Shown: one piece after another, positions 9,519-38,364 of the stretch
Layout of the letters: each line of letters starts with the position of its first letter
Numbering within the stretch: position 1 is the stretch's first letter
NCBI GenBank assembly: GCA_963833225.1
Contig: CAWHXD010000019.1
Coordinates: 374,075 to 438,074 of the forward strand
Source: an uncultured Chloroflexia bacterium
GTDB taxonomy: Bacteria > Chloroflexota > Limnocylindria > Limnocylindrales > CSP1-4
Direction of reading: 5' to 3'
DNA: 64,000 bases
Position numbers and translations under genes: made by a program
The notes under the pieces: generated by a model
What the model was told of the DNA's origin: nothing
The model's input: only the letters and a program-made list of their open reading frames with translations
Databases searched by the model: none

Positions 9519-10883
9519 GACCCGGCTCCCTGGGCTGTCCGCTGCGCGGCGGCGACGGGTGTCGCGGCTCCCGGCTCAACCGCGGCTGCGTCACCGCTCT
9601 CGACGTGCTCCTCGTGGTCATGCTTGCGGAGCCACGGCCAGCTGAAGAACAGGTGCGTGTCGCCTTCGCCCATGTTGAGGTAGCGCTCCGCGAGGGTGTA
9701 GAAGAACGCCATGAACGCGCCCCGCACCCACCAGGATCGCGATCTCCACCATCGTCGGCGTGTAGGTCGCGTACGGGTAGACCACGGTGCCGGCGAGCGC
9801 GGTGACCGGGGCGATCTGCCCGGCGGCGACGAACAGGTACCGGTCGAGCAGGATCCCCGCGAGGATCAGCACGCTCGCGGCAACCATTGCCTCGGGGCGC
9901 CGGGCGATCGGCAGCGAGATGATCACGGCCGGGACCACCAGCCCGAGGATGACCCGCGCCCAGAACTGCGCGGCCAGCGGCCCCGTCAGGAGGGCGGTGG
10001 TCGCCTCGCGAAGGCCCCGCTCCTCGCCGTTCAGCCCGGCTGCGATCATGCGCACGGTCAGCGCGCCGACGAGCGCGATCCCGATGGCGAGCAGGAGCCG
10101 TGCCGACGGCAGCGCGACCGGTGCCGCCCGCTCGAAATCGGCGAGCCGCAGCCGGTGGACGAAGTAGAAGACGATGCCCAGCAGCGCGGTGCCGGCAAGG
10201 AACGCCGAGGCGACCATCGTGATCGGCGTGAAGATCCCGTTCCAGAACACCTTCGCACCCAGGACGCCGAACACCGCGCCCAGCGTCGCCGGCGCCAGGA
10301 TCGCGATGATCGAGGCGCAGGTGCAGGCGTACTGGTGGATCTTCGGATGGTCCGTGAACAGGCTCCAGACCTCGACGACCAGGACCACGAGATAGGCACC
10401 GTAGAACACGCCCATCCACCACATGGGCGACGAGGGGGAGGGGACCAGCACCGCCCCGAAGATCATCCGGACCGGGTAGTGCAGGTCGAGGGCGATGATC
10501 AGGAACGCCGTGGTGAGCGAGAGGAGCGCGAGGATCGCGTGGCGCTTCTCGAACGGCTGGAAACGCTCGATGCCGAACACCGTCCCCAGCGACGACGCGA
10601 GGCACAGCCCGCTGGTCATGATCGCGAAGAACGCGTAGCCGATGATCATCAGCCCCCACTCGAACGAGGGCGTGGTCCCGAACACCTCCCAGCCGGGTGG
10701 CAGGGCCACGATCGCCGCGACGGCCATGACGGCCATCAGGGCGAGCAACAGCCCCAGCCATGCCTGGAGCACGACGGGCATGCTCCTGACCTCGGTCACG
10801 AGCGAGCGGGCGAGCGGTCGCGGGGCCAGCGGGATCCGGTAGTCCAGCAGGTGGAGCTCGAGCGGCGTGACGGTCGCGCGCAC
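9515..10883 (-). CDS. NrfD/PsrC-family polytopic quinol-interacting membrane subunit, with an apparent -1 frameshift near 9715
   Basis: ORF 9618..10883 is an about-8-TM NrfD-like protein. Its GTG start at 10883 is preceded by AAGGAGGG. The last about 70 aa continue in ORF 9515..9727, which is a different frame, and that frame's stop forms GTGA with the downstream cytochrome start. The in-frame tail (RVHGVLLHPRGALPQHGRRR) looks like junk. Confidence 0.65.
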
Positions 10884-10886
10884 CCC

Positions 10887-16974: not shown

Positions 16975-17033
16975 CCCGGCTCGGGCGTCGCCCGGTCGGT
17001 CGCTATCGCCGGCGCAGGCGCTCGCGGGCGTTG

Positions 17034-18864
17034 TCAAGCAGGATGAACAGCCCAAGGCCCGCAAGGACCAGCAGCACGAGCTCGCGCAGATACGTCCACG
17101 CGAGCAGCAGCGCGGACACGGACGCCAGGATCACCGTCACTCGGAGCAGGAGCGTCTCGACGCGTCGCTGGCGCGAACGACTCGATCGCGAGGTATCCGA
17201 TCACGAGCAGCATGACGGTGGCGCCCACGGGCAGGATCTGGAACCACAGGATCACGGCGAGCGCGATGACCAGGACCCCGACGCTCAACGCCGCCCACGT
17301 CTCGGCAAACACGCGCCGCCGGGTGTGGTCGGGCGGCTCCGGGGTGGCGGTAGACGTGAGGTGTTCCCGAGGATCGCCGCGGTAGCCCGCGTCATAGCGG
17401 GCGAGATACGCCTCGGCCGCGGCCGCCGCGGCCCGCAGCTCCGCCGCGGCCGCCCGCTGCGACGCGAGGCGGGCCTCGCCGTCGGCCAGCTCGGTCGCCC
17501 GGCGAGCCCGGTACTCGCCAAGCCCGGAGGCCTCGGCCAGGGCACGGACCTCAACACCCAGCCCGGGAAGGGTCGAGGCAAGCTCGGATGCCTCGGCTTC
17601 GATCGCGCGCCGTTCCGCATCGAGGGTCGCAACGCGGCCCTCGAGCGTCGCACGCGTCTCGGCCGGCGTCGGGATCCCGGCCAGCCCGACGAAGCTCAGC
17701 GGGTCGTTCCAGGACTGGCGGACGGTCCCGGCGCGTGTGTACTTCGGCCCCGCGGGCGCTCGCTCGCCCGCCATCCGGTCCCCGGTGTCCAGGCCCCACA
17801 GGCCCCGGTACGCGTCCACCCACCCGTCGGCATCCGAGACCAGGACGGGGCTCCACGCGATCTCCTGGCCCGGGCCGACGGTGACGCCGTCGCCACGCGC
17901 ATAGTCCACGAACGGGATGCTCACGAGGCGCGCGATCATCTCGGCAAGGTCGCCGGGGTCGGGCTGGTTGAGCGTGTCGCGCCACGTCCGTCGGACCCAG
18001 TCGAGAATGCCGCGCTGCAGCGCGGACCCGGGCAGGGCAAGCCGCATGATGTACTCGCCAGGCTCGACGTACGTCGCATGCGGACCCGGCGCCGGGGTAG
18101 ACGACGACGTGCTCGCCCTCCTTGCGGAGCGTGGGGTCGTCCCAGCGGCGGCGCAGGTCCGCGCCACGCTCGTCGTGCGCCGCGGCCGCGAACCAGATCG
18201 GGATGACGTCCCCGTCGGGCAGCTGCTCGAGGATCACGAAGGCCTGCTCCCAGTCGGCCTCGTGGTCATTGGCGCCCTCGAACGTCGAGCGCCAGTCATT
18301 CATCGGGTAGAAGAACAGGTAGTGCAGGACGACCCAGCCATCCTGGCGGACGACGCGTCCGTGATAGCTGACCCGCGGGTCCCTCGAACGCAGGCGCTGG
18401 TACTTGATTGCGGCCGCGGCGGCCGTGCCGCCCGGGACCTTGCCGCGCACGAGGAGCGAGGCCACGACCCCGGCGTCCAGCATGCGGGCGAGGATGCCCA
18501 CGCGAGCCAGGCGCCCGGGCGCGCGGAACCGTGGCCGGTCTGGCCGGTTCATGAACCTCGCGAGCTCGAGCGGGTTGAGCGGCTCCTGCACGAAGCGCAG
18601 GAAATGGGCTTCCCCGGGCGGCGCGTCGCCAATCGCCGCCAGGCGCTCGGCGTCGAGCTCGCCGACCGGGACCACCACCCGTGCGGCTGACGGCGTGGGG
18701 CCAGAGAGCAGGTCGCATGCGGCCAGGTAGCTCGTCGCCGGGGTGGGGAAGAACTGCTCCCCGTGCGTGAACCGCAGGATCGGCTCGAAGCGGCGAAGCA
18801 GGGCCTCGTCCCCATCGCCCGGGCTCGCCGGGGCCGCGGGCGCCACGCCCACCGGGACGGTCAT
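17034..18864 (-). CDS. Large hypothetical protein (N-terminal domain with FFYPMNDW motif, coiled-coil Ala/Glu-rich middle, C-terminal TM helix), with an apparent frameshift near 18075
   Basis: ORF 17551..18864 (...VVVYPGAGS) continues seamlessly in ORF 17034..18167 (HATYVEPGEYIMRLALPG...). Deleting one nucleotide in the run tccgcatgcg would restore a single frame. Confidence 0.5.
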
Positions 18865-20322: not shown

Positions 20323-21664
20323 TCAAGCGTTCGCGATCTCGTCCCGGAACGCGCGGATGTCCTCCAGGCGGCGCCGGAGCGCGTTGAGGAAGCGGGCGCC
20401 TGTCTCGCCGTCCACGATCCGGTGGTCTGCCGAGAGCGTCAGCTTCATCACCTGCCGGATCCCGATGCCGCCGTCGACGGCCATCGGGGTGGCGATCGCC
20501 GAGGACACGGCCAGAATCGCGGCCTCGCCGGGGTTGATGATCGCGCTGAACTCCTCGACGCCGAACATCCCGAGGTTGCTCACGGTGAACGTGGAGCCGG
20601 CCAGGTCGTCGACCGGGATGGAGCCGTCCCTCGCCGCCGCCGCCAGCGCCGCGACACGATCGTGGAGCGCCGCGATGGTGAGACGGTCCGCGTCACGGAC
20701 GACGGGCACCACGAGCCCCGACGGGACCGAGACCGCCACCCCGAGGTGGACGCGCCGACGGGGATAGACGACCTCGCCGTCGGTGCGCGAGTTGACGTCC
20801 GGGAACTCGGCCAGCGTCTGGGCGGTGGCCGCGAGCACGAAGTCGGTCACGGTGAGGGTGTGGCCCTCTGCCTTGAGCTCCGCGCGGAGCGCGAGCACGC
20901 GGGTGACGTCCACCGCCACCGTCACGGTGAAGTGCGGCGTCGTCTGCCAGCTGTTCGTGAGCCGGGCGGCGATGGTCCGGCGCATCCGGCTCATCGGACG
21001 CGGTGCGTCCTCGCCCTCGACCGGGGGGATGACCGGCTGGGCGACGGGCACCGTCGCGGGGGCTGGCGCTGTGGCTGCGGGTGCCGCCGCGGGCGTGGGT
21101 GCCCCGGCCACGGGGACCGGTCGCGCGGTGGCCGCGGCCCGGACGTCGCGCTCGACGATCCGGCCCTCGGGGCCCGAGCCGGTGACCGAGAGCGGGTCAA
21201 CGCCCAGCTGCGCGGCAAGACGGCTCGCGCGCGGGCTGATCTTCACGCGGCCGGGGGCCGCGGGCGCGGGCGAAGGTGCGGCCTCCGGTGCCGCGGCGGC
21301 CGCTTCCACCGGGGCCTCTTGTGCCTGCGGCGAGGCGGGCGTCGCGACCGCGCGCAGCACCGCGTCCGCGACGGGCGCGGTCACGCGGCGTGACCGGCTC
21401 GGCCGGCGTCTCGGGGACGGCCTCGCCTGGCTGGCCGATCCAGCCGCAGACCGCGTTGACCGGTGCCGTCTCACCATCGGCGACGACCCGGGCGAGGAGC
21501 ACGCCCTCCTCGAATGTCTCGACCTCCATCGAGCTCTTGTCGGTCTCGATCTCGAACAGGACGTCGCCCTTGTGGACGGGGTCGCCCACCTCCTTGCGCC
21601 AGAGGGTGAGCACGCACTCCTCGGTCATCTGGCCGGGCTTGGGCATCAGGATCGGGGTGGCCAT
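20323..21664 (-). CDS. Dihydrolipoamide acyltransferase E2 (lipoyl domain + catalytic domain), with an apparent frameshift in the linker near 21400
   Basis: The lipoyl domain MATPILMPKPGQMTEECVLTL...EIETDKSSMEVE is the C-terminal part of ORF 21197..22372, with its ATG at 21664 preceded by AAGGAG. The catalytic domain with SADHRIVDGETGARFLNALRRRLEDIRAF is in ORF 20323..21477, a different frame. The switch lies next to the palindrome GTCACGCGGCGTGAC (21380..21394). Confidence 0.7.
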
Positions 21665-25021: not shown

Positions 25022-25052
25022 TCGAGCGTCAACCGCTCAAATGATCAGGTCA
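25010..25052. promoter_or_regulatory. 43-bp near-perfect inverted repeat (19-bp arms, 5-nt loop) covering the SorC regulator start codon
   Basis: TGACCTGATCATTCGAGCG-tcaac-CGCTCAAATGATCAGGTCA, with an 18/19 match between the arms. The start codon of the regulator (ATGATCAGGTCA) is the left arm on the minus strand. Confidence 0.5.
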
Positions 25053-25443: not shown

Positions 25444-26268
25444 TCAGACCAGGTCGGTTTCGATCCCGAAGGCGTCCTTGACCGAGCGGAGCTCATCGTC
25501 GGTCAGGCGCTGGCCGCGACCGCCGGCGACGAGGTCCAGGTACTCGTAGCGGGCCCCGGCCTCCGCGTACTCGATCCGGTCGACCGCGCGGGTGACGCTG
25601 ATGTCGCTGCGGGCCATGACCCCGTGCTTGGACCAGACGTCGATGCGGTGCGTCCTCAGGCTTCCCACGTTGGCGGCCATCATTGCGTCCGACCCGGGGA
25701 GCATGAACGGCAGGATGCCGATGCCCCGCGGGAGCTGGACGATGGTCTCCGGCTCCCAGCGCATGACCCTGGCGTTGAAGTAGGCCTCGTCGCTGTATTC
25801 GGGGATGTGCGACAGGTAGGTCAGGTGCGGCGGCTGGGCGTGGACGACCGCATGGAAGTTCGTGCCGGTGCGTGCGACGGTGTCGTCGTGGACGGCGAGG
25901 TGCGAGTTCCACTCCGAGGTGAGCTTCTCGAACAGCCGCCCCGGGGAAGTCCACAGCGTCGCTGTCACGCCGTCGGCTTCGATGACGACCGCTCCCACGC
26001 TGTTGACCGGCGTGACCGCCAGGTCCCGGAGGCGCCGGCCGGATCCCGTGACGATGACGGTGTGGCCGGCCAGGCGCGCGGCCGGGAGCGGCAGTGCGAT
26101 GGACTCGCGGTTCGGGAAGCGCCGCCGGACCTCGATCGGCCAGCCGATGCAGATCGAGATGTTGCCGGCGGCCCCTTCGCCCGCGTCGATCGCGGCCACG
26201 CGGCGGCCGCCCTCGCCCATCGAGGCCAGGAGCTCGTCGAGCTCGGGGAACGGCTCGTTCAGCGCCAT
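25444..26268 (-). CDS. rhaD: Rhamnulose-1-phosphate aldolase (class II aldolase/adducin family)
   Basis: The internal ATG at 26268 follows GGGAGGA. The 274-aa product has VTGSGRRLRDL and GIGILPFMLPGSD...WSKHGV, paralleling E. coli RhaD's VTGSGKFFRNV and GVGILPWMVPGTD...WPFHGV. Confidence 0.8.
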   Translation of the reverse strand: MALNEPFPELDELLASMGEGGRRVAAIDAGEGAAGNISICIGWPIEVRRRFPNRESIALPLPAARLAGHTVIVTGSGRRLRDLAVTPVNSVGAVVIEADGVTATLWTSPGRLFEKLTSEWNSHLAVHDDTVARTGTNFHAVVHAQPPHLTYLSHIPEYSDEAYFNARVMRWEPETIVQLPRGIGILPFMLPGSDAMMAANVGSLRTHRIDVWSKHGVMARSDISVTRAVDRIEYAEAGARYEYLDLVAGGRGQRLTDDELRSVKDAFGIETDLV

Positions 26269-26278
26269 CGAGTCCTCC

Positions 26279-27496
26279 CTACCAACTCGCGGCCGTGCCG
26301 CCCACCCGCGCCGCGTACTTCGCCTCCTCCTCACCCGACGCGAGGTAGGCGCGGTAGGGGTCGGGCGCGAGCCCGCGCGCGACCCGCAGCTCGGCGAGGA
26401 GCGGCCGGACGTCGGTGTTGAACGCATCCCACAGGCAGCCGTTCGCCTCCAGCACGTCGCCCGCCGCCTGCGCCGCCACCAGCCGCTCGCGGTCCACCAG
26501 CAGCACCTTGGCGATCGTCTCCTGGAGGTTCATGACGCTCCGGATCATGGCCGGCACCTTGGGCTCGATGTTGTGGCACTGGTCGAGCATGTAGGTGGTC
26601 TGGTTGGCGGTCTCCTGAGCGATCGGATCGGCGTCGTCGCGCATCGCGTTGACCAGCTCGTGGGCGATCCGGAAGAGCTGGTATGGGTCGATGGAGCCGA
26701 CCATGAGATCGTCGTCGCCGTACTTCTTGTCGTTGAGGTCGAAGGCGGCCAGCTTCCCCTCGGCGAGGAGCAGGGCCACGATCTGCTCGATGTTGACGCC
26801 CATCGCGTGGTGTCCGGTGTCGACGCACACGCCGGCGCGATCGCCCAGCTGGCGCACGACGTTGAGGCTCTGTCCCCAGTCCTGGACGTCGGTGCTGTAC
26901 AGCGCGGGCTCGTAGAGCTTGTACTCGAGGTACAGGCGGGCGTTCGCGGGCAGCGCGGCGTAGACCTCCCGCAGCCCGGCGACCAGCCGTCGGTGCCGTC
27001 CGCGCAGGTCGTCCTGGCCCGGGTAGTTGGTGCCGTCGCCCAGCCAGACCTTGACCGCCTGGGCATCGGTCGCGGCGGCGATCTCGCAGCAGCCCACGAT
27101 GGCCGCGACGGCCTTGGCGCGGACACGGGCGTCGGGATGACAGATCGACCCGAGCTTGTAGTCCTCGTCTTGGAAGGTGTTGCTGTTGATGCCGCCGAGG
27201 ACGAGCCCGCGCCCCTTCGTGTAGGCCGCGAGCCCCGCCCAGTCATCGACCATGTCCCAGGGGATGTGGAGGCTCACGCTGCCCGCGATCCCCGTGTAGC
27301 GGTTGACGGTCGCCGCGTCGTCGATCTTCTCGAACACCGTGCGCGGCACCCCCTGCTGGGGGAACACGCGGAACCGGGTCCCGGTATTGACGAAGCCCCA
27401 CGACGGAATCTCGATGTTGACGCCGTTCATGGCCCAGTCGATGCGCTCGATGGCCGGGGCGGACGCGGGCTTGGCGATGGCGGCGATGGTGGCCAT
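26279..27496 (-). CDS. rhaI: L-rhamnose isomerase (xylose-isomerase-like TIM-barrel, actinobacterial/Pseudomonas-stutzeri type)
   Basis: 405 aa. It sits in a rha operon between the kinase and aldolase genes, and the sugar-phosphate-isomerase TIM-barrel motifs are present. Confidence 0.8.
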   Translation of the reverse strand: MATIAAIAKPASAPAIERIDWAMNGVNIEIPSWGFVNTGTRFRVFPQQGVPRTVFEKIDDAATVNRYTGIAGSVSLHIPWDMVDDWAGLAAYTKGRGLVLGGINSNTFQDEDYKLGSICHPDARVRAKAVAAIVGCCEIAAATDAQAVKVWLGDGTNYPGQDDLRGRHRRLVAGLREVYAALPANARLYLEYKLYEPALYSTDVQDWGQSLNVVRQLGDRAGVCVDTGHHAMGVNIEQIVALLLAEGKLAAFDLNDKKYGDDDLMVGSIDPYQLFRIAHELVNAMRDDADPIAQETANQTTYMLDQCHNIEPKVPAMIRSVMNLQETIAKVLLVDRERLVAAQAAGDVLEANGCLWDAFNTDVRPLLAELRVARGLAPDPYRAYLASGEEEAKYAARVGGTAASW

Positions 27497-27513
27497 GGCG
27501 GTCTCCTTGGGGC

Positions 27514-29007
27514 TCAGGCGGAGGTGGCGGGCCGGCGGGCGCAGATCGCGGCGAACCGCGCGCGCGCCTCGGTCCAGTCACCGGACGGTTCATAGGTGGT
27601 GATCGGGAAGGAGCGGGCCGCCAGCTCGCGTGCCTCGGCGACCGAGGCGAGCTCGCCCGACGCGATGGCCTGGACGGCGAGGTTGCCAATGGCCGTTGCC
27701 TCGACGGGGCCGGCTCGCACCGGGAGCCCGGTGGCGCCGGCGGTCAGGCGGTTGAGGAGGCGGTTCCTGCAGCCACCGCCCACGATGTGCACGGCATCGA
27801 TCGGCTGGTCTGACGCGGCGGCAAGCTGGTCGATCGCCGCGGCATAGCGCAGCGCCAGGCTCTCCAGCAGGACGCGCATCAGCGTGCCGGTGTCGCGCGG
27901 CACGGGCTGATCGGTCTCGGCGCAGAACTCGCGGACGCGAGCCGGGAGGTCGCCCGGGCGCAGGAAGCGCTCGTCGTCGGGATCGATGAACGCGGTGAAC
28001 GCCGGCGCGGCCTCGGCGAGGCCGGCCAGCTTCTCGTAGGTCGGTGCCTCGCGATCCGGCCACAGGGCGCGCCGGCTCTCCTGGACCAGCCACAGGCCAA
28101 CCACGTTGCGCAGCAGCCGGATCGTGCCGACCACGCCACCCTCGTTGGTCAGGTTCGCGGCGAGGGACACGTCGGAGATCACCGGCTCCGGCATCTCCAA
28201 CCCGATCAGCGACCAGGTGCCCGAGGAGAGGAAGGCGGTGGATCGGGATCCGATCGGGGTGCCGACAACGGCCGAGGCCGTGTCGTGCGAACCGGGGAGC
28301 ACCACCCGCGTGAGGGCGAGCCCGGACGCGCTCGCGAGCCCGTCCATCAGGCCGCCCACGTCCGTGCCGGGCGGAACGATCTCCGGCAACAGCCGGGTCG
28401 GGATGCCAAGGCGCTCCAGCATGGGTCGAGCCCAGTCGCGGGCCCGGGCGTCGAGCGCCTGGCTGGTGGATGCGAGCGTGTACTCGGACACGCTGGCGCC
28501 CGACAGGAAGTGGGCGAACAGGTCGGCCATCATCAGCAGCCGGTCCGCGTGCCGCAGGAGCGGGTCGTCCGCGCTCGCCATGGACAGCAGCTGGTACACG
28601 GTGTTGATGGCCATGAACTGGATGCCCGTGACGGCGTAGATCTCGTCCCGCGGGACCAGCCCGAACGCCCGCTCAAGCATGCCGTCGGTCCGTGCGTCAC
28701 GGTAGTGGACGGGGTTCGCGAGCAGTCGCCCCCGCTCGTCGAGGAGCGCGAAGTCCACGCCCCAGGTGTCGACGGCGACGGAGGCCACATCGCCTGCCGC
28801 GCCGGCCTTGCGCAGGCCGGTCCCGATGTCGCCGAACAGGCGCAGGGCGTCCCAGTGGAGCGTCCCCGCCACGGCCACGGGCACGTTCGGGAACCGGTGG
28901 ATGTCCTCGATCGCAAGCCGCTCGCCGTCGAAGGTGCCGACGAGGACTCGACCGCTTTCGGCACCCAGGTCGACGGCCGCGAGCCGGACGTTGGCGCGCT
29001 CAGTCAA
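27514..29007 (-). CDS. rhaB: Rhamnulokinase (FGGY carbohydrate kinase family)
   Basis: 497 aa with the FGGY N-terminus (AVDLGAESGRV...DTWGVDFALLD) and the C-terminal GGG...N motif. Confidence 0.85.
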   Translation of the reverse strand: MTERANVRLAAVDLGAESGRVLVGTFDGERLAIEDIHRFPNVPVAVAGTLHWDALRLFGDIGTGLRKAGAAGDVASVAVDTWGVDFALLDERGRLLANPVHYRDARTDGMLERAFGLVPRDEIYAVTGIQFMAINTVYQLLSMASADDPLLRHADRLLMMADLFAHFLSGASVSEYTLASTSQALDARARDWARPMLERLGIPTRLLPEIVPPGTDVGGLMDGLASASGLALTRVVLPGSHDTASAVVGTPIGSRSTAFLSSGTWSLIGLEMPEPVISDVSLAANLTNEGGVVGTIRLLRNVVGLWLVQESRRALWPDREAPTYEKLAGLAEAAPAFTAFIDPDDERFLRPGDLPARVREFCAETDQPVPRDTGTLMRVLLESLALRYAAAIDQLAAASDQPIDAVHIVGGGCRNRLLNRLTAGATGLPVRAGPVEATAIGNLAVQAIASGELASVAEARELAARSFPITTYEPSGDWTEARARFAAICARRPATSA

Positions 29008-29314
29008 GGCGGAACACCTCCTCCAGGCGCCGGTGGAACCCCGTGGCCGGGTCGGTGCACGGGTCGATGAGGCGGGCCATGTCCGCCTGCCAGAGGTCGT
29101 TGACCGGCTGCTCGGCCATGAACGCCCGGAACCGGTCGAAGTCCTCGACGTCGAACACGCCGATCAGTGTCCCGTCGAGCAGGTAGATGGAGTAGTTGCT
29201 GACCCCGCCGTCCCGGAGGGCCCCGAGCATCTCGGGCCAGACGTCGGCGTGGCGCCGGCGGTACTCGTCCTCGGCGCCGGGCAGCAGGCGCATGGTGAAG
29301 GCGATGCGTTCCAT
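29000..29314 (-). CDS. rhaM: L-rhamnose mutarotase
   Basis: 104 aa, MERIAFTMRLLPGAEDEYRRRH...VSNYSIYLLDGTLIGVFDVED, matching the RhaM family. It overlaps the rhaB start by 8 nt. Confidence 0.85.
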   Translation of the reverse strand: MERIAFTMRLLPGAEDEYRRRHADVWPEMLGALRDGGVSNYSIYLLDGTLIGVFDVEDFDRFRAFMAEQPVNDLWQADMARLIDPCTDPATGFHRRLEEVFRLD

Positions 29315-29380
29315 CGATGGTGGCTCCCGGGATGGGAAACGGGCCCCGGCGGAGGATCCGCCGGGGCCCGGCTGGAGGAG

Positions 29381-30531
29381 CTAGAAGTCGAACTGGTCGA
29401 CGTTCGTCGCGTCGAACCGGAAAGCCGGCCCGAGGATGACGACGCTGTCCGCACCGATCGTGTACGGCTGGCCGTTGTTGAGACTCGGCACGGTGAAGGT
29501 CTCGCCCTCAGCGCCCGTGATCTCGCCCTTGACCAGCTTGTCGGCGATGACGTAGGAGAGGTAGCCGAGGTCCGGGAACACTCCACAGGCCGAAGACCGG
29601 GGAGGTGCCGTCCTTGACGAACGGCCTTCATGTCGTTGGGGAAGCCGAGGCCGGTGACCTTGACGGAGTCCGACTTGCCGGCCTGCGAGACGACCTGTGC
29701 CGCCGCGAGGATGCCGACCGTGGTCGGGGCGACGATGACCTTGAGGTTCGGGTACTTGGTCAGCAGAGTCTGCGCCTGCTGGGTGCTCTTGGTCGCGTCG
29801 TCATCGCCGTAGACGGTGTCGACGAGCTTGAGCCCCGCGTACTTGGTCGTCCTTGAGGGTCGTCTTCATGAGGTCGATCCAGGCGTTCTGGTTGGTGGCC
29901 GTGGCGGCCGCCGACAGGATCGCGATCTCGCCGGTGCAATTCGGCGCGAGCTCGCACGCCCAGTCGGCGAGGTTGACGCCGACGCCGCTGAAGTCAACCT
30001 GGTTGACGAACACGTTGTAGGCGCCGACCGCGGGGCTGGAGTCAAAGCCGACAACCTTGATGCCCGCTGCCATGGCCTCCTTGAGCGCCGGGGCGACCTC
30101 GTCCTTGCCGTCAGCGGAGATGATGATCGCGCTGACGTTCTGGGTGGTGAGGTCCGTGATGAACGGGATCTGGAGGTCGGCCTTCGCCTCGTTGGGCCCG
30201 ACCTGGATGACGGTCCCGCCGAGCTCGCCGGCAGCCTTGTCGACGCCCGTCTTCGCGGCGGCGAAGTACTGGTTGACGATGTCCTTGGGCAGGTAGCCGA
30301 CGGTCATGGACCGGGCGCCATGGACGCGGGCGCCATGGACCGGGCGCCATGGACTCGGGCGCCATGGACTCGGGCGCCTGGGCTGGCGGGGGCGGCGGAC
30401 GGGCTGGCGGCGCCGTTGCCGCAGGCCGACAGCACGATGACGGCCGTGCCTGCGATGGCGAGCCACCGTCCGGCTGAATGGAGCTTCAAGGGAGTTCCTC
30501 CTCTATGTCGATTACTGGCGCGCGTTCTCAC
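29381..30531 (-). pseudogene. rhaS: Rhamnose ABC transporter substrate-binding lipoprotein, disrupted by at least three frameshifts and a tandem repeat
   Basis: The N-terminus carries a lipobox (VIVLSACGNG) in one frame. The periplasmic-binding-protein core (IQVGPNEAKADLQIPFITDL...) is in a second frame. Segment KYAGLKLVDTVYGDDDATKSTQQAQTLL...GLGF is in a third frame. The C-terminus (FGLWSVPDLGYLSYVIADKLVKGE...QFDF) is in the second frame again. Single-nucleotide indels near 29845 and 29610 (aaggccg where aagccg is expected) and the 14/15-nt repeat at 30305..30377 account for the shifts. Confidence 0.7.
30305..30377. repeat. Five-copy tandem repeat CATGGAC(N)CGGGCGC with 14/15-nt units inside the binding-protein linker
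   Basis: Unit lengths are 14, 15, 14, 15 and 15 nt, for 73 nt total, which is not a multiple of 3. On the coding strand it encodes (ARVHG)n / (RPSPW)n depending on frame. Confidence 0.8.
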
Positions 30532-31463
30532 CCGGGAATCGCGTCGGCCGGCTGGTGCCGGCGCCTCTGGACGCGTTCATGGCCGTTCTGGCCTTGGTGA
30601 GCGAAGGTTGGGATGAGGACGGACAGGATCAGCAGCAACCCCAGGGCGATGCTCTGGACCTCGACCGACACGCTGGCGAGCCGGAGGGCGTTCTGCATCA
30701 CGGCGATCGTGAGCACGGCCAGGACCGTGCCCGGGATCGTGCCCGAACCTCCGAAGATATTGGCGCCGCCCGAGCAGCACGACCGTCGACGGCCGTGATC
30801 GTCATCCCCTCGCCGGCATCGGCGCGGGCGCTCGAGAGACGGGATGTCAGCACGACGCCCGCGAAGGCGGCGATGGTGCCCGTGAGGACGAACAGGCTGG
30901 TGCGGAGACGGGTCACCCGGACGCCCGAGTAGCGAGCCGTCCCCGCGTTCCGGCCAATGGCGTAGATCTGGCGCCCGATCCACGTCCGGTGGAGCACGAT
31001 GCCGAGCGCCAGCGCGAGGCCGAGGAAGATGACGAACGACCATGGGATCACCGTGCCGGGAACGTCGCCGAACCCGAGCTGGGTGAAGGCCTCCGGGAAG
31101 TTGCTGACACCGCGCGGCCCAAGGACGATGAGCGCCATCCCGCGGAACAGGGCCAGCGTGCCGAGCGTGACCACGAGCGACGGCAGGCCGCCGCGGCCGA
31201 CGAGGACGCCGTTGAGGAAGCCGCCGGCGGCGCCGATGAGCGAGCACGAGCGGGATGGCGATCTCGAGGGGCACGCCGGCCGCCCACAGGAAGCCAAGGG
31301 TTGCGCTGGCGAGCCCGGCCATCGACTCCACCGACAGGTCGATCTCGCCGAGGATGATGACCAGGGTCAGCGGCAGGGCCATGATCGCCACCTCCATGAG
31401 GGCGGCGACCAGGTTCGAGAAGTTCTTGGCGGTCAGGAAGTACGGGGAGAGGGCGTTGCCCAT
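30528..31463 (-). pseudogene. Rhamnose/ribose-type ABC transporter permease with two compensating frameshifts (near 31250 and 30790)
   Basis: The N-terminus is MGNALSPYFLTAKNFSNLVAALMEVAIMALPLTLVIILGEIDLSV... (ATG 31463). The central 150 aa are only readable in ORF 30698..31297 (GVLVGRGGLPSLVVTLGTLALFRGMALIV...). The C-terminus returns to the first frame (GGANIFGGSGTIPGTVLAVLTIAV...). Confidence 0.65.
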
Positions 31464-31560
31464 CACACCAGCCCCAGCAGGGCGACCAGGAGCAGCGTCT
31501 CCCATCGGGCCAGCCCCCGAAGCACGGAGCCGATCACCGGCCGGGACCGCGCCGGCGCCG

Positions 31561-32580
31561 TCATCGGGCGCCACTCCGGGTGTTCGCGCGCTGGACGCCA
31601 CGACGGATGAGCTGGTCGCTGCTGATCGCCAGCAGGATGACAACGCCGTAGATCGCCTGGAGCCAGAACTGCGACAGGCCGACGAGGATCAGCGCATTCG
31701 CGATGAACCCGAGGAACAGGGCGCCGATCGCCGCGCCGGCGAGCGTGCCCGAGCCGCCGAGGATGTTCACCCCGCCGACCACGACCGCGGCGATGACCGC
31801 GAGGACCACGCCCGTTGCCGCTGTGCCGTTGATGGTGCCGAACTCGATCACCCACATCACGCCCGCCAGGCCCGCGAGGATGCCGCACACGGCATAGGCG
31901 ACGAAGATGACCCGGCGGGACGGGATGCCCAGGATCGCGGCCGCATCAGGGTTGCTGCCGACGGCGTAGACCTGGCGGCCGAAGCGGGTCGAGCGCAGGA
32001 GCACGGAGCCCACGACGACCACCCCGATCGTGACGCAGGACGAACACGGGGATGCCGAGGAAGTCGGTGCGGGCGATGTGGGCGAACCCCTCGGGAAGGC
32101 AGGCGAGCGGGACCTGGTCGGGACCGGCGATCACGTAGTCGATCCCGCGGAAGATGCTGAGCGTTCCCAGGGTGGCCACGATCGCGCGGCACCTTGAGCA
32201 TCGCGATGATGAACCCGTTGACCATCCCGAGCACAAGGCCGATGGCGAGCCCCAGCACGAGCGCACCGAGCCGGGTCGACGGTCTCCAGCTCGAGCGAGC
32301 GGGCGACGGCGTAGGCAACCAGCCCGATGATCGCCTCGACCGACAGGTCGATGCCCCGGGTGATGATGACGAGCGCCTCGCCGACAGCGGCGATCGCCGT
32401 GATCGACGCGAGGACCGCGACCTGGCTGAAGTTGTCGACGGACAGGAACTGCGGGGCCATGGTCGTGACCAGGCCGCCGAGCACGAACATGAGCGCGACC
32501 AGGGTCAGCTCGCGCTGGCGTCCGATCACCAGCAGCCAGTGGCCGCGGCCCCGCCGCACCGGGAGCGTCGCTTCAGCCAT
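31561..32580 (-). pseudogene. Second ABC transporter permease of the rha operon with at least three frameshifts
   Basis: The readable segments are in three different frames. ORF 32131..32580 holds the N-terminus (VLASITAIAAVGEALVIITRGIDLSVEA). ORF 31857..32318 holds LGALVLGLAIGLVLGMVNGFIIAMLKVP. ORF 31946..32266 holds IVATLGTLSIFRGIDYVIAGPDQ. ORF 31561..32022 holds the C-terminus (VNILGGSGTLAGAAIGALFLGFIANALIL). Confidence 0.65.
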
Positions 32581-34070
32581 GGGATCGCCTGGGTGCCGGT
32601 GGCCGCGAACATCACGCGCTCCTGGGTGGCCTCATCCCTCGAGATCTCGGCCGTGACCCGGCCCTCGTGGAGGACGATGATCCGGTCGGACATCGCCAGC
32701 ACCTCGGGCAGATCGCTCGAGATCAGGATGATCGCCAGGCCCTTCGCGGCCAGCTCGGCGATCAACCGGTGCACCTCGACCTTGGCTCCGATGTCGATGC
32801 CCCGCGTCGGCTCGTCGAGGATCAGGACCCGCGGGCCGGACGCCAGCCACTTGGCCAGCACGACCTTCTGCTGGTTGCCGCCCGACAGGGCGCCCACCTG
32901 TTGGTCGACGCCGGTCATCCGTACGTCGAACTGCTCGGTGTGCTCGGCTGCCACGGCTCGCTCCTTCGCCTCGTGCACCAGGAGCCTGGGGAACAGGCGG
33001 GGCAGGATGGGCAGCGTGACGTTGTGGGCAATGGAGAAGTCGAGGATCAGGCCCTGCTGGTGGCGGTCCTCGGGCAGATAGGCGATGCCCGCGCTCATCG
33101 CCCCGGACGGCGCGCCGAAGTCCACGGGTGTTCCGTCCAGCCGCACGTCTCCGCTGTCCCGCCGGTCGATCCCGAACAGCACCCGAGCGATCTCGGACCG
33201 GCCGGCCCCGACGAGGCCCGCGAGCCCGACGATCTCCCCGGCCCGCACCGAGAACGAGACATCGCGGAACACACCGACCCGCGTCAGGTTGGAGACCTCG
33301 AGCAGCACATCGCCGATCGGGTTCTCGACCTTTGGAAACAGGGACACGGTCCGGCCGACCATGTGGCGGATGAGGTCGGCGGTCGTGAGCTCCGATGTCG
33401 GCGCGGTGACGACATGACGGCCATCACGGAAGACCGTCGCCCGGTCACTCAGGTCGAACACCTCGTCCAGGCGGTGGCTCACGAACAGGATGGCCACGCC
33501 CCGGTCCCGCAGCCGGCGGACGATGGTGAACAGCCGCTCGACTTCGTGGGCCGAGAGCGAGGCCGTGGGTTCATCAAGGATGAGCACGTTGGCCTCGACC
33601 GACAGGGCCTTGGCGATCTCGATCAGCTGCTGGTCGGCCATCGACAGGCCACGAACCGGTGCGCCGACGTTGACCTGCACGTCCAGCTCTTCAAACAGCG
33701 TCTCCGCCGACCGCCGCATGCCGCGCCAGTCGATCAACCCGAGGTGGCCAGACGGCGCGTGACCGATGAACACGTTCTCGGCGACCGTGAGGTCCGGGAA
33801 CAGGCGTGGCTCCTGGTGGACGACCGCGATCCCCAGCGCGCGCGACCGGGATGGCCCGGCGATCTGGGTTGGCACGCCGTCCAGCAGGATCGTGCCGCTG
33901 TCCGGCTGGTGGACCCCGGCCAGGATCTTGACAAGGGTGCTCTTGCCGGCACCGTTCTCGCCGACGAGCGCGTGCACCTCGCCCGCCAGGATGTCGAGCG
34001 AGACATCGCTCAGCGCCGCGGTCGCCCCAAAGCGCTTGGAGATCCCGGACAGGGCGACGCGCGGCGTCAT
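32526..34070 (-). CDS. Sugar ABC transporter ATP-binding protein (tandem ABC domains, RbsA/RhaT type)
   Basis: The internal ATG at 34070 overlaps the regulator stop (ATGA). There are two Walker A motifs (GENGAGKST, GLVGAGRSE) and two LSGGNQQK signatures. The last about 17 aa may be spurious: a TGA in the +1 frame lies 2 nt after the permease ATG. Confidence 0.85.
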   Translation of the reverse strand: MTPRVALSGISKRFGATAALSDVSLDILAGEVHALVGENGAGKSTLVKILAGVHQPDSGTILLDGVPTQIAGPSRSRALGIAVVHQEPRLFPDLTVAENVFIGHAPSGHLGLIDWRGMRRSAETLFEELDVQVNVGAPVRGLSMADQQLIEIAKALSVEANVLILDEPTASLSAHEVERLFTIVRRLRDRGVAILFVSHRLDEVFDLSDRATVFRDGRHVVTAPTSELTTADLIRHMVGRTVSLFPKVENPIGDVLLEVSNLTRVGVFRDVSFSVRAGEIVGLAGLVGAGRSEIARVLFGIDRRDSGDVRLDGTPVDFGAPSGAMSAGIAYLPEDRHQQGLILDFSIAHNVTLPILPRLFPRLLVHEAKERAVAAEHTEQFDVRMTGVDQQVGALSGGNQQKVVLAKWLASGPRVLILDEPTRGIDIGAKVEVHRLIAELAAKGLAIILISSDLPEVLAMSDRIIVLHEGRVTAEISRDEATQERVMFAATGTQAIPWLKRRSRCGGAAATGCW

Positions 34071-34891
34071 CCGGCGGCCCCGGCGTCGACGCGCATGACG
34101 GTCACGCCAAGCCTCTCGAGGGCGGTGACCATGTCGGCGGGCGCCTGCTGGTCCGTGATGATGCCGGTCAGCCGGTCCGCGCGGCAGAACGTCGCCGACG
34201 CCGTGCGCCCGAACTTGGTGTGGTCCACGACCGCATAGACCTCGCGCGCCGCCGCGACCATCGAGCGCTTGATCTGGGCCTCCTCCTCCATCGCGTCGGT
34301 GAGGCCGGCCTCCATCGTGAGGCCCACGGCCCCCACGAATGCCTTCTGGACGTTGACCCGGCGGAAGACGCCATCGCCCAGCGGCCCAACGACCGAGAGC
34401 GCCTCGGAGCGGACGCGGCCGCCCAGCATCAGGACCGTGATCCCGGGGTGGCCCGCGAGCTCCAGCGCGATCCGGATGCTGTTGGTCACCACCGTGAGCT
34501 GATGCCAGGTCGTGCGCTCCTTGAGGTGGCGGGCGACGTAGAGCGCCGTGGTGCTCGCGTCGAACACGATGCTCTCGCCGTCCGCGATGAGGGCGGCGGC
34601 GGCCGAGCCGATCTGCCACTTCTCGTCGCGCTGGCGTCGTTCGCGGACCTCGAACGCGGGCTCCGGACGGTCGGAGGCACGGGGGGCGATCGCGCCACCG
34701 TGGGTCCGCATGACGCGCGCCTCGCCCTCGAGCACGAGGAGGTCCTTGCGGATCGTGACCGGCGACACGCCGAACTGGACGGCCAGCTCCGCGACCCGCA
34801 CACGGCCGGCGTTGGCGACCATCTCCGCGATCTGCTCCTGGCGCTCCGGGGCGAACACGGCCTCGGGCGTGGTACCGGGCTTCACAGCCAC
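34067..34891 (-). CDS. DeoR-family transcriptional regulator of the rha operon
   Basis: The GTG is at 34891. It has an N-terminal HTH (RQEQIAEMVANAGRVRVAELAVQFGVSPVTIRKDL) and a DeoR C-terminal sugar-phosphate-binding domain. It is first in the minus-strand operon. Confidence 0.8.
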   Translation of the reverse strand: MAVKPGTTPEAVFAPERQEQIAEMVANAGRVRVAELAVQFGVSPVTIRKDLLVLEGEARVMRTHGGAIAPRASDRPEPAFEVRERRQRDEKWQIGSAAAALIADGESIVFDASTTALYVARHLKERTTWHQLTVVTNSIRIALELAGHPGITVLMLGGRVRSEALSVVGPLGDGVFRRVNVQKAFVGAVGLTMEAGLTDAMEEEAQIKRSMVAAAREVYAVVDHTKFGRTASATFCRADRLTGIITDQQAPADMVTALERLGVTVMRVDAGAAG

Positions 34892-35104
34892 AAGGTTCGA
34901 CTCCAAGCGAAACGGGGAAGGTCGATTTCGAAACTTCGGTTGGTTGCGAATAGGAGCACTTTGCGACGGCGAGCGGGCTCTGTCAAGCGCAATCGCGCCA
35001 GAGATGCCTGGCCTGGGTTGAGTTGGCGCCGTCGGTCGCGTACGATGCGGTATCACAACCAATCGGAATGAGTCGTAACTACTCGGAGAGCAGGCGAACC
35101 GCAG

Positions 35105-36331
35105 ATGCAGACGGCTCGCAGCATGGAGGACCCGGTGCACGCGGGACTGCCCATCGTCAACACCCACGTGCACCTGGCGCCCAACTTCTCGGCGTTCGAG
35201 ACGCCCGAGGACGCTGTCGCGGCGGCGCAGGCAGAGGGCGTCCGGGTATTCGGCGCGTCGAACTTCCACGACCACCGGGTCTATGCGCGCTTCGCGCAGG
35301 CGGCCGAGGGAGCCGGAATCCTGCCGCTGTTCGGGGTCGAGTTCATCACGGTGGTCGAGGACCTGCGCGCCGCGGACATCCGGGTGAACGACCCCGCGAA
35401 CCCAGGGCGCATGTACCTCTGCGGCAAGGGCGTCGACCCGTTCCGGGACCCCGGGCCGGAGGCCGGCCGGATCGCGGACGCGGCTCGCGTCGCGAACGAG
35501 TCGCGCGCGCGAGCGATGGCACGCCTCCTGCGCGATCACTTCGCGGCGGCCGGGCTGGCCACGTCGCTCGACGATCGGGCGATCGTCGCGGACATCGCGG
35601 AACGGGCCCGCGTCCCCGAGGCCTGGGTGGTGCTCCAGGAGCGCCATCTCGCCATGGCGTTCCAGGAGGCCCTGTTCCTGCAGGTCCCTCCGGCCCGTCG
35701 GGCCGACCTGCTGGCCCGCGCGTACGGCCGGGTGCCCGCTGCCCCCGTCGAGGACAATGTCGCGGTGCAGGGTGAGATCCGGTCCCGGTTGCTGAAGGCT
35801 GGCTGCCCGGCATTCGTGCCCGAGACGGCGCTCGGATTCGATGACGCCGTGCGACTGGTCCTGGCCCTCGACGGCATCCCCGCCTACCCGACGCTCGCCG
35901 ACGGCGCGCAACCGGTCTGCCCGTTCGAGGCGTCACCGGACGAGCTGGCGACCGAGCTGAAGGCGCGCGGCCTGCACCTGGCCGAGCTCATCCCCGGGCG
36001 CAACGAGCCAGGGACCGTCGACGCCTACGTGACGGCCTTTCGCGCCGCCGGGATCGCGGTCACCGCGGGAACCGAGCACAACACCCCGGAGCGAATCCCG
36101 TTCGCGCCGGCCGGCAAGGGCGGGCGGCCCCTGTCGCCGGTGGCCCGATCCGCGTTCTTCGAGGGCGCGTGCGTGGTCGTGGCCCATCAGCAGCGGCGCC
36201 AAACGGGGCTCGGCGGGTTCGTCGGCGCCGACGGCATCCCGGCGCCCGGTTTCGCGGACGACGACGCGCGCATCCGCTGGTTCGCGGCACTCGGTGCCCA
36301 GGTGATCGCGGGCGAAGGGGGCGTCGCATGA
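35105..36331 (+). CDS. Hypothetical PHP-like metal-dependent hydrolase; function unknown
   Basis: 408 aa with an N-terminal IVNTHVHLAP...FGASNFHD histidine cluster. Its TGA overlaps the RhaEW ATG (ATGA). Confidence 0.5.
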   Translation: MQTARSMEDPVHAGLPIVNTHVHLAPNFSAFETPEDAVAAAQAEGVRVFGASNFHDHRVYARFAQAAEGAGILPLFGVEFITVVEDLRAADIRVNDPANPGRMYLCGKGVDPFRDPGPEAGRIADAARVANESRARAMARLLRDHFAAAGLATSLDDRAIVADIAERARVPEAWVVLQERHLAMAFQEALFLQVPPARRADLLARAYGRVPAAPVEDNVAVQGEIRSRLLKAGCPAFVPETALGFDDAVRLVLALDGIPAYPTLADGAQPVCPFEASPDELATELKARGLHLAELIPGRNEPGTVDAYVTAFRAAGIAVTAGTEHNTPERIPFAPAGKGGRPLSPVARSAFFEGACVVVAHQQRRQTGLGGFVGADGIPAPGFADDDARIRWFAALGAQVIAGEGGVA

Positions 36332-38364
36332 CCACCACGATCGACCCGCCGGCGGCCGACGACCCCGTCATCGGGGAGTTGATCGCGCTCGCCCACCGGT
36401 TCGGGCTGGACCCGGAGTTCTCGCGCGGCGGTGGCGGGAACGCCTCGGCAAAGGCGGATGGCGTGCTGTGGATCAAGCCAAGCGGGGTTCCGCTCGCCAC
36501 GCTCGAGACGGCCGATCTCGTGCCGCTCGATCGTGCGAGCCTGCTCGCGACGCTGGACGCCCCGGTGGCGCCGCGGGCCGACGTCGGCGATCCGGTGATG
36601 CGCGCGGCCGAGCAGGCCCGACTGGGCCCCGCCGGCGGGCGCCGGCCCTCGGTGGAGCTCCTGTTCCACGCGCTGATGCCCGAGCGGTTCGTCCTGCATA
36701 CCCACCCGATCGTGATCAACGCGGTCACCTGCAACGAGGATGGCGAGGCGATCGCCCGCCGCCTGTTCGGCGACGACGTCCTGTGGGTGCCGTACAGGGA
36801 TCCGGGGCTGCCGCTGGCGCACGCCATCCGGGACGCCCGGGACGCCCACGTCCTGCGGACCGGCGGGCCTGTCCCCCGGATCACGCTGATGCAGAATCAC
36901 GGGCTGATCGTCGCGGCCGACTCAGTTGCGGACATCGACGCGGCATCGCGGCGGCTGGTCGAGGTCATCGCGGGTGCCGTCGATCACGCCATCGAGAGGA
37001 CGGCCGCCCCCGCCTTCACGCCGCCACTGCCGGCACCCGCCGACGCGCTGGTCCAGGCGCTTGCGCCAACGCTGCGGGCCCTGCTGTCGCCGGCCTCGCG
37101 GCGGGTCGTGATCTTCGACGGGATCCCGTCCGCCGCGGCGTTCACCGCGACGGCGGCCGGGCGTGCGTTCGTGCAGGGTGGCCCGCTCACGCCCGACCAG
37201 ATCGTGTACGCCGGGGCCCAGCCGCTGTTGCTCGACCTCGACGACGTGCCGCCGGACTCGGCGGCGGACATCGGGGCCGGCGCCCTTGCGCGCCATGCGG
37301 CGGACGGGCTCGACGCCCCGCTCGTCGTGGTGGTGCCCGGCGTCGGGCTGTTCGCGGTCGGTGACACCTGGGCCGCCGCGGACACCGCGCGCCACATCTA
37401 CCTCGATGCCCTGCGGGTGGGCGAGGCCGCCAACCGGATCGGGCGAGTGCGCCACCTGGCACCGGCGGAACGCCAGTTCATCGAGGACTGGGAGGCCGAG
37501 GCATACCGCAAGCAGGTCGCCGCCGGCGACGCGGGCCCAGGTCGCGCGGCCGGCCGGATCGCCCTCGTCACCGGGGCCGCGCAGGGCTTTGGCCTCGCGA
37601 TCGCCGAGGATCTCGTCGCCAACGGCGCCCACGTCGTCCTCGCCGATCTCAACGTCCCGCTCGCGGAGGCCAACGCGGCGGCCCTCGTGGACCGCTTCGG
37701 CCCCGGGCGGGCGATGGCGATCGCGATGGACGTCACCGACGAGGCGAGCGTCGCCGCCGGCATCGCGGCCACGGTGCGAGCGTATGGCGGCCTTGACCTC
37801 CTCGTGTCCAACGCGGGCGTGCTGCGGGCCAGCGGGGTCACGGCCCAGCCGCTGGCCGACTTTGACCTCGTGACCCGGGTCAACTACCGCGGCTACTTCC
37901 TCGCGGTCAAGCACGCCGCCCCGGTCATGGCCGCGCAGCACCGCGCCAACCCCGACTGGTGGGGCGACATCATCGAGATCAACTCCAAGTCCGGCCTCGT
38001 GGGCTCGTCGCGCAACAGCGCCTACGCGGGCTCCAAGTTCGGCGGCATCGGTCTCACCCAGTCGTTCGCCCTCGAGCTGGTCAGCGACGGGATCAAGGTC
38101 AACGCCATCTGCCCTGGCAACTTCCTCGATGGACCGCTGTGGTCGGACCCGGACAACGGCCTGTTCGTGCAGTACCTGCGCGAGGGCAAGGTGCCGGGCG
38201 CGACGACGATCGACGACGTGCGCCGCGCCTACGAGGCCAAGGTCCCGATGGGCCGCGGCTGTACCCCGGCCGACGTGATGGAGGCCCTCTACTATCTCGT
38301 GGCCCAGGAATACGAGACGGGCCAGGCGCTGCCGGTGACCGGTGGCCAGGTGATGCTGAGCTGA
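36328..38364 (+). CDS. rhaEW: Bifunctional rhamnulose-1-phosphate aldolase / short-chain dehydrogenase (RhaEW / YuxG type)
   Basis: The ATG at 36328 follows GAAGGGGG. The N-terminal class II aldolase domain (LLFHALMPERFVLHTHP) is followed by a C-terminal SDR domain (VTGAAQGFG...NAG...YAGSK). The product is 678 aa. Confidence 0.8.
   Translation: MTTTIDPPAADDPVIGELIALAHRFGLDPEFSRGGGGNASAKADGVLWIKPSGVPLATLETADLVPLDRASLLATLDAPVAPRADVGDPVMRAAEQARLGPAGGRRPSVELLFHALMPERFVLHTHPIVINAVTCNEDGEAIARRLFGDDVLWVPYRDPGLPLAHAIRDARDAHVLRTGGPVPRITLMQNHGLIVAADSVADIDAASRRLVEVIAGAVDHAIERTAAPAFTPPLPAPADALVQALAPTLRALLSPASRRVVIFDGIPSAAAFTATAAGRAFVQGGPLTPDQIVYAGAQPLLLDLDDVPPDSAADIGAGALARHAADGLDAPLVVVVPGVGLFAVGDTWAAADTARHIYLDALRVGEAANRIGRVRHLAPAERQFIEDWEAEAYRKQVAAGDAGPGRAAGRIALVTGAAQGFGLAIAEDLVANGAHVVLADLNVPLAEANAAALVDRFGPGRAMAIAMDVTDEASVAAGIAATVRAYGGLDLLVSNAGVLRASGVTAQPLADFDLVTRVNYRGYFLAVKHAAPVMAAQHRANPDWWGDIIEINSKSGLVGSSRNSAYAGSKFGGIGLTQSFALELVSDGIKVNAICPGNFLDGPLWSDPDNGLFVQYLREGKVPGATTIDDVRRAYEAKVPMGRGCTPADVMEALYYLVAQEYETGQALPVTGGQVMLS

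Follow-up and report, generated by a model that had tools for sequence, protein, structure and literature searches.

Single-base indels across the rhamnose importer genes of a Chloroflexota-like metagenome contig probably form a local patch of consensus error

Background

Rhamnose ABC importers of the RhaSTPQ type (CUT2 family) have been described in Rhizobium leguminosarum. The operon studied here is like that system in encoding a Peripla_BP_4 protein, a fused double-ABC ATPase and two BPD_transp_2 permeases together with rhaM, a rhamnulokinase, an L-rhamnose isomerase, an aldolase and a DeoR regulator. It differs in gene order (ATPase, permease, permease, binding protein), in having a lipoprotein binding protein with a linker encoded by a 15-nt repeat, (APESM)n, and in its Chloroflexota-like host.

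As the importer genes are interrupted by frameshifts, two further phenomena serve for comparison. The first is reductive pseudogene decay, known from Mycobacterium leprae and from host-restricted bacteria, in which several frameshifts likewise lie in recognisable genes beside intact ones. Unlike such decay, the window (the whole 64-kb stretch of DNA analysed) shows no relaxed selection, nonsense codons or deletions longer than 1 nt in these genes, its lesions are biased towards insertion, and lesions are also found in unrelated housekeeping genes and, elsewhere, in sibling assemblies. The second is the consensus error of long-read assemblies, Nanopore-only ones for example, which is measured by the IDEEL test. 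Here the likeness lies in single-base indels private to one assembly, in adjacent gene fragments that jointly match a full-length homologue and in a severity that differs among related assemblies. The literature stresses homopolymer indels, however, whereas 74% of the insertions described below are isolated G/C outside homopolymers, insertions greatly exceed deletions, and the changes occur in kb-scale patches and are not evenly spread. Nanopore-only assemblies below ~40x coverage keep frameshifting consensus indels (PMC9262707).

Results

The importer operon and its surroundings

The host DNA has a GC content of ~70% and the importer lies within a rhamnose catabolic cluster. Judging by the source names of homologues, the uncultured host may belong to Limnocylindria (Chloroflexota). 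Pfam searches of the repaired translations identified the Peripla_BP_4 protein, the two BPD_transp_2 permeases and the double-ABC ATPase in one operon on the minus strand. The RhaT-like double-ABC sugar ATPase gene (32526..34070) is continuous with a shifted 3' end that contains one indel. The gene for permease 1 (RhaP-like, BPD_transp_2; 31561..32580, ATG at 32580, TGA at 31561-31563) carries three insertions and encodes 338 aa once repaired, that for permease 2 (RhaQ-like, BPD_transp_2; 30512..31564, ATG at 31564, TAA at 30512-30514) has seven indels and a repaired length of 349 aa, and the substrate-binding lipoprotein gene (RhaS-like, Peripla_BP_4; 29381..30489, TTG start at 30489, TAG stop at 29381-29383) has six, with a repaired product of 368 aa. 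The region holds a rhamnose ABC importer of CUT2 type that looks normal and functional, made up of ATPase, two permeases and lipoprotein binding protein. Relatives of the binding protein bear the annotation 'rhamnose transport system substrate-binding protein', and it is this homologue annotation from which binding and transport of rhamnose are predicted.

An earlier note on this DNA had described the flanking genes as continuous. This holds on the minus strand for the DeoR-family regulator (34067..34885; intact here, fragmented in the related contig L081), rhaM (29000-29314), the rhamnulokinase gene rhaB (27514-29007), the L-rhamnose isomerase gene rhaI (26279-27496; RhaI above the NCBIfam cut-off) and the class II aldolase (25444-26427), as well as for the rhaD-like gene, and alignment with relatives revealed no window-private frame-breaking indels in the catabolic genes at 25444..29314 (minus strand). 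The ATPase gene, though continuous, is not fully intact: an insertion at 32585, 11 nt before the ancestral stop, removes its TGA, which shares bases with the permease ATG, and a spurious 19-aa tail replaces the ending TQAS(D/L)G and its stop. A second rhaM (45307-45651) and a second ABC importer (57822-61223) are present in the window, as previously noted. Neither the Rfam scan nor the tRNA scan, each run on all 64 kb of the window, gave a match.

Seventeen one-base indels within 3 kb

A GC3 frame plot with Viterbi segmentation showed ~10 switches of the minus-strand coding frame between 29.5 and 32.6 kb, and in tblastn searches intact orthologues from Cellulomonas (L007) and from an Actinomycetota MAG (L001) aligned colinearly through the successive frames of this patch. 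Distant reference relatives, taken from an ATPase scan of genome contigs, had at most 57% identity. Look-ups of identical proteins for the ATPase, rhaM and rhaI gave no match. Close relatives were four Limnocylindria-like contigs (L081, L082, L084 and L085; 78-93% nucleotide identity), and 4- and 5-way MAFFT alignments with these, together with a pairwise indel list against L081, resolved 17 one-base indels at 29573-32585 of the minus strand, all private to the window. Thirteen are insertions (32585, 32270, 32185, 32034, 31241, 30788, 30768, 30593, 30533, 30385, 29849, 29622 and 29573) and four are deletions (31467, 30580, 30341 and 30312). Comparison with orthologous loci of related genomes, which the earlier note had asked for, was uniform in its outcome: at 17 of 17 sites all four relatives lack the change, at positions that are otherwise conserved, as would be the case for an artefact private to one assembly.

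The indels are spaced at a mean of ~190 nt and the patch has sharp edges. Among window-private indels of non-3n length in 24000-40400, 17 of 22 fall within these 3.0 kb (binomial P = 3e-9), which bears out the local enrichment previously reported. The earlier count of about eight ±1 frameshifts in the three importer genes was right as to the frame switches but too low in number, because closely spaced indels partly cancel. Compared with the functional orthologues of the four relatives the reading frame is thus disrupted by 17 frame-breaking indels, a feature that a pseudogene would also display.

In permease 1 the insertions total +3, so that the N- and C-terminal parts are in one frame, and every gene is fully recognisable across its shifts. 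Both observations would suit expression of the genes in spite of their changes of frame, through programmed ribosomal frameshifting or transcriptional slippage, but no slippery motif or homopolymer is common to the 17 sites in 3 kb and the orthologues are single-frame in four relatives, so that this explanation is effectively refuted.

In the binding-protein gene a 15-nt tandem repeat at 30305..30378 (minus strand) codes for the (APESM)n linker that follows the lipobox Cys. Its presence inside the stretch, as a 14/15-nt repeat, had been recorded before, but the part then suggested for it in promoting errors found no support, as the linker repeat is normal and in-frame in the relatives, with 15-nt units, and explains just 2-3 of the 17 patch indels. 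Measured against the relatives, each of the two 14-nt units of the window has lost one base. A 29-nt tandem duplication as the lesion in the linker was likewise rejected, since the number of in-frame 15-nt units is the same in the relatives, two of the units in the window being simply one base short.

Repair of the indels and tests of selection

Reverting the 17 indels gave ORFs of 338, 349 and 368 aa, the same lengths as the L081 proteins, with identities to these of 94.7, 94.0 and 95.7% respectively. The repaired proteins have Pfam matches from end to end and there are zero in-frame stops in ~1055 codons; reversion therefore restores full-length conserved proteins without any other defect, as it should if the indels are artefacts. 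Substitution identity within the patch is 93.6-96.8%, not below that outside, and since it is uniform a recombinant or foreign origin of the patch was rejected.

A very recent and genuine pseudogenisation of the rhamnose importer, with the catabolic enzymes kept and the substrate perhaps supplied by another transporter, would be consistent with frameshifts that are present in the sequence and strongly clustered on importer genes, and with the second sugar ABC importer and second rhaM in the window. It would also fit a slight excess of private nonsynonymous changes in the transporter, although this is non-significant (odds ratio 1.4-1.9). Purifying selection on the patch genes nevertheless shows no sign of relaxation. 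Values of dN/dS against L081 were 0.158, 0.241 and 0.112 for the three repaired genes and 0.135-0.240 for intact neighbours, the ratio of window-private synonymous to nonsynonymous changes was 28:18 in the patch genes and 129:58 in the flanks (Fisher P = 0.30), and neutrality (~72% nonsynonymous sites) was rejected for the patch genes with P = 4e-6. The lesion spectrum is equally difficult to reconcile with gene decay. In bacterial pseudogenes substitutions are about tenfold commoner than indels and deletions of varied size predominate, and from that ratio 17 neutral indels would imply more than 100 neutral substitutions, whereas only 46 private codon changes accompany them here, most of them synonymous, and the lesions, far from being mixed, are all of 1 nt, with no stops after repair. 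The involvement of the ATPase stop, and the reappearance of the same insertion bias and G/C non-homopolymer signature in other assemblies and genes, also count against pseudogenisation, which we regard as very unlikely. The "selective decay" proposed in the earlier note is thus not borne out by the repaired genes, in which relaxed selection, stops and larger lesions are all absent.

Selection and a dip in coverage could each account for the sharp confinement of the patch to 3 kb of importer genes. The patch disregards gene boundaries and function and, as its first indel falls among the final ATPase codons, it is not selective for membrane and binding components.

Frameshifts elsewhere in the window and in related assemblies

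Outside the patch we found at least four frameshifts, with 40-64 kb covered by GC3 segmentation and Pfam only, where three had been counted before. All four are one-base insertions in minus-strand genes. One, at 21384 (within 21300..21400), affects the gene for the E2 acyltransferase of a 2-oxoacid dehydrogenase; it lies in the linker and leaves the lipoyl domain in one frame and the remainder in the next. Two, at 18083 and 17171, are in a conserved hypothetical gene of 619 aa (17003..18863), whose conceptual merge has 91% identity to P0121 over 100% of the P0121 length and whose protein has no Pfam match. The fourth, at 9723, is in the gene for an NrfD-family membrane subunit (9618..10886), where the C-terminal part (~9515-9728) is shifted and the NrfD Pfam domain stops short of the junction. 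A search with the LarA homologue for relatives of the 40-64 kb region led to a non-syntenic contig (L087).

The nearest relative, L081 (ERZ25039500 contig_37247), has intact transporter genes and yet shows private changes of its own, 29 one-base insertions together with 8 deletions. Most of these lie in the adjoining 5.4 kb, which is intact in the window, and the gene calls for DeoR, the rhaD-like gene, rhaB and the aldolase are fragmented. In L085 (ERZ25039543) the ATPase and permease genes contain nine private insertions of one base, and many further genes are split. Neither L082 (NCBI GCA_038250545.1) nor L084 has private insertions inside genes. Insertions far exceed deletions in each of the three affected assemblies, and when the private insertions of the window, L081 and L085 are pooled, G or C accounts for 45 of 50, and 37 of 50 have no identical adjacent base. 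The signature is independent of gene function, as it is found in the E2, 619-aa and NrfD genes and in the patches of L081 and L085. As a cause of the patch, cross-mapping of reads where conservation is highest was considered and rejected, for although the transporter is the segment most conserved against L082, the L081 patch falls in a poorly conserved stretch.

The kilobase-scale tracts of single G/C insertions, private to each of three related assemblies and alike in their context signature, might also reflect a local process in vivo that makes +1 insertions in kb tracts of these Limnocylindria-like genomes, for example error-prone patch repair or the action of a mobile-element-associated polymerase. 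In two related assemblies, however, there are none, conserved and selected genes (E2, ABC ATPase, regulators) would be inactivated with no relaxation of selection, and platform or assembler is the simpler common cause. We know of no process of tract-wise +1 insertion, and consider this one extremely unlikely. That the insertions are real, with +1 tracts formed in vivo, the rhamnose importer of this population very recently knocked out by one of them, its catabolic enzymes spared, and other parts of the cluster struck by independent tracts in two related populations, is very improbable; were it true it would be the sign of an unknown tract-wise insertion mutagenesis, which nothing here favours.

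Discussion

Taken as observations, the indels are private to the window, their removal restores full-length orthologues, and sibling assemblies carry like patches elsewhere. We therefore favour, with a probability of roughly 0.89, the reading that the patch is a local consensus-error patch of a metagenome assembly and no biological feature or evolutionary loss of a transporter. The other possibility raised in the earlier note, a locally error-prone assembly, agrees well with indels that are one-base, mostly isolated G/C insertions and with like patches in two related public assemblies.

If this is correct the deposited sequence would contain a 3-kb error patch, with 13 spurious insertions and 4 deletions, which splits three genes and the ATPase stop. 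In a long-read metagenome assembly the read support may have been too low or too mixed for polishing across the stretch, and where a stretch is left unpolished a noisy read-level consensus would persist over a tract on the scale of read length. Long-read MFD MAGs made with Flye and Medaka have been described, and names of the form 'contig_NNNNN' would fit such records (PMC12313526).

As biology the locus would then be an ordinary rhamnose importer operon, and calls of gene loss or "selective decay" drawn from such assemblies would here be false. As isolated G/C insertion patches of kb scale occur in three or more public contigs that are related, metabolic reconstructions for this lineage can be distorted by them, and so can its pseudogene counts and its completeness and coding-density statistics.

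Gene content of the rhamnose cluster and other loci in the window

The GC content of the window is ~70% and the rhamnose cluster lies on its minus strand at 25.4-34.9 kb. It comprises genes for a DeoR-family regulator (34067-34885), a double-ABC sugar ATPase (32526-34070), permease 1 (31561-32580), permease 2 (30512-31564), the binding protein (29381-30489), rhaM (29000-29314), rhamnulokinase (27514-29007), an L-rhamnose isomerase scoring above the NCBIfam cut-off (26279-27496) and a class II aldolase (25444-26427), all read from that strand. The conceptual translation of the binding protein has many homologues at 80-93% identity, several of which carry the name 'rhamnose transport system substrate-binding protein' and several of which are from Candidatus Limnocylindrales or Chloroflexi MAGs. 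Judged from its gene content, the locus most likely represents an ordinary CUT2 rhamnose importer operon.

The second sugar importer and second rhaM previously noted in the window are both present. The importer is of CUT1 type, with an SBP_bac_1 binding protein, two BPD_transp_1 permeases and no adjacent ATPase, and is followed by a LacI-family regulator (57822-62355 in all, plus strand); by ORF and Pfam analysis all of these genes are intact. The second rhaM (45307-45651) belongs to a fucose-type cluster at 41745-47572 that also contains a LacI regulator, a FucU/RbsD mutarotase and an L-fucose isomerase. Adjoining it are genes for a URO-D-like protein and for one with a B12-binding domain, which together recall, by analogy, corrinoid methyltransferase systems; the genes of the cluster and of this pair all appear intact.

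A LarA-type nickel-dependent lactate racemase homologue (49219-50508, plus strand) shares 91% identity with a protein from a different ENA contig, and the surroundings of that protein are non-syntenic with the window. At 14974-16974 (plus strand) a gene of ~1.9 kb encodes a Castor/Pollux-type channel of 666 aa with TrkA domains; it is missing from the otherwise syntenic contig L086, where a DinB_2 gene takes its place. GC3 segmentation labelled two long stretches as non-coding. The first (41099-41890, 792 nt) carries 23- and 25-nt tandem repeats (41102-41151, 41636-41692) and overlaps at its end with the LacI ORF (41745-42905) that belongs to the fucose-type cluster, and within the second (24999-25446) segments of 21, 32 and 24 nt are missing in L081. 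No Rfam or tRNA matches were found in the whole window.

Frameshifts in the transporter genes

A GC3 frame plot and Viterbi segmentation revealed ~10 coding-frame jumps at 29.5-32.6 kb, with a single frame kept by each flanking gene. Protein-like segments continue one another across the three minus-strand frames, and in tblastn searches intact orthologues from distant Cellulomonas (L007) and Actinomycetota MAG (L001) loci align colinearly through successive window frames. Taken together these observations show that the frameshifts are real features of the deposited sequence.

In order to polarise the indels we used multi-way alignments with related syntenic contigs, namely the nearest relative L081/L086 (ENA ERZ25039500 contig_37247, 92.9% nucleotide identity over 19 kb), L082 (NCBI GCA_038250545.1, 82%), L084 (ERZ25039601, 78%) and L085 (ERZ25039543, contig_31780, 79%). 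At 29573-32585 the window alone carries 17 one-base indels, 13 insertions and 4 deletions, distributed over permease 1 (3 insertions), permease 2 (5 insertions, 2 deletions) and the binding-protein gene (4 insertions, 2 deletions), with a further insertion at 32585. The latter lies 11 nt ahead of the ancestral ATPase stop, abolishes the ATGGCTGA stop/start overlap and gives the ATPase a 19-aa tail. The other 13.4 kb of the aligned stretch holds at most 5 private indels of length not divisible by three, none ORF-breaking (binomial P = 3e-9 for clustering in the patch). The frameshifts described in the earlier note were thus understated, at about eight against 17, and its view of the flanking genes as intact holds for their single frames, though not for the 3' end of the ATPase. 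The comparison with orthologous loci that it had suggested finds all 17 indels private to the window and the L081 transporter genes intact.

The tandem repeat at 30305-30378 is in relatives a normal in-frame 15-nt repeat encoding an (APESM)n linker C-terminal to the lipobox cysteine, and the two 14-nt units in the window each lack one base. This linker is low-complexity and variable in the N-termini of the homologous proteins P0001, P0002, P0004 and P0032; repeat number and sequence vary among relatives, with (APESM)5 in the closest and AP(E/Q)(T/S)T-type units in another. Programmed frameshifting was ruled out, no motif being present and the orthologues being single-frame.

Selection on the repaired genes

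Removal of the 13 private bases, with the 4 gaps filled, yields uninterrupted ORFs of 338, 349 and 368 aa, exactly the L081 protein lengths, whose products are 94.7, 94.0 and 95.7% identical to those of L081 and each match their Pfam model end to end; none of the three contains an in-frame stop. Their dN/dS values against L081 (0.158, 0.241 and 0.112, Nei-Gojobori) resemble those of intact neighbours (0.135-0.240). When L082 and L084 serve as outgroups, the codon changes private to the window are 28 synonymous and 18 nonsynonymous for the transporter, against 129 and 58 for the flanks (Fisher P = 0.30), the transporter being far from the neutral expectation of ~72% nonsynonymous (P = 4e-6). 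Substitution identity to L081 within the patch (93.6-96.8%) is no lower than outside it, and against L082 no stretch is better conserved than the transporter. By dN/dS, private codon changes and substitution identity there is no relaxed selection in the repaired genes.

Bacterial pseudogenes have characteristic substitution:indel ratios and a deletion bias, both of which differ from the patch. Against this background, neither 17 indels with just 46 private, mostly synonymous codon changes nor exclusively 1-nt, insertion-biased lesions fit known pseudogene spectra. The selective decay proposed earlier is not borne out, and a recent pseudogenisation of the importer, to which the broken frames might otherwise point, is very improbable given the clean repaired ORFs and the recurrence of the same insertion signature in other assemblies and in unrelated window genes.

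Recurrence of the signature and origin of the patch

Although its transporter genes are intact, L081 has fragmented gene calls for DeoR, rhaD-like, rhaB, aldolase and ADH. It carries 29 insertions and 8 deletions, all private and one-base, and 33 of these map to the counterpart of 34142-39564, a part of the window that is itself unbroken. In L085 the ATPase and the two permease genes together contain 9 private one-base insertions, and many further genes are split (e.g. arginase, DUF1810); no frame-breaking indels were found inside genes of L082 or L084. The patches in L081 (locus 900-6360) and L085 (locus about 6400-9500) are kilobase-scale and carry private single G/C insertions. In a pool of 50 private insertions from the window, L081 and L085, the added base is G or C in 45 and has no identical neighbour in 37; in each of the three sequences insertions outnumber deletions.

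Comparison with L086 also places frame-breaking one-base insertions in the unrelated window genes for a 2-oxoacid dehydrogenase E2 acyltransferase (~21384, within 21300-21400), a conserved 619-aa hypothetical protein (18083 and 17171) and an NrfD-family subunit (9723). Conceptual merging of the 619-aa gene gives 91% identity over 100% of the length of its homologue P0121; possibly two more insertions (18887/18894) lie at the end of a small membrane-protein gene upstream of it. Since these genes and the L081 and L085 patches are affected alike, the lesions track neither gene function nor gene boundaries.

A real mutagenesis inserting bases tract by tract would account for the signature common to the affected assemblies; it is less economical than a common technology, shows no sign in two relatives and is in our view more improbable still than pseudogenisation. 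With indels that are private, a reversion that fully restores the genes and a signature that recurs, we infer that the deposited sequence most likely holds a read-length-scale patch of consensus errors, which would have been left unpolished over one such stretch. This agrees with the locally error-prone assembly that had been offered as the other explanation. The 'contig_NNNNN' names of the relatives match those of Microflora Danica long-read catalogue MAGs, which are Nanopore-derived, Flye-assembled and Medaka-polished (PMC12313526), and Nanopore-only assemblies retain frameshifting indels below ~40x coverage (PMC9262707). Some caution on a Nanopore origin is warranted as the window errors mostly avoid homopolymers, unlike classic Nanopore error. 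On the strength of these sequence comparisons the frameshift cluster is almost certainly not a real biological feature, and the patch serves as a warning on patchy insertion errors in related MAG assemblies.
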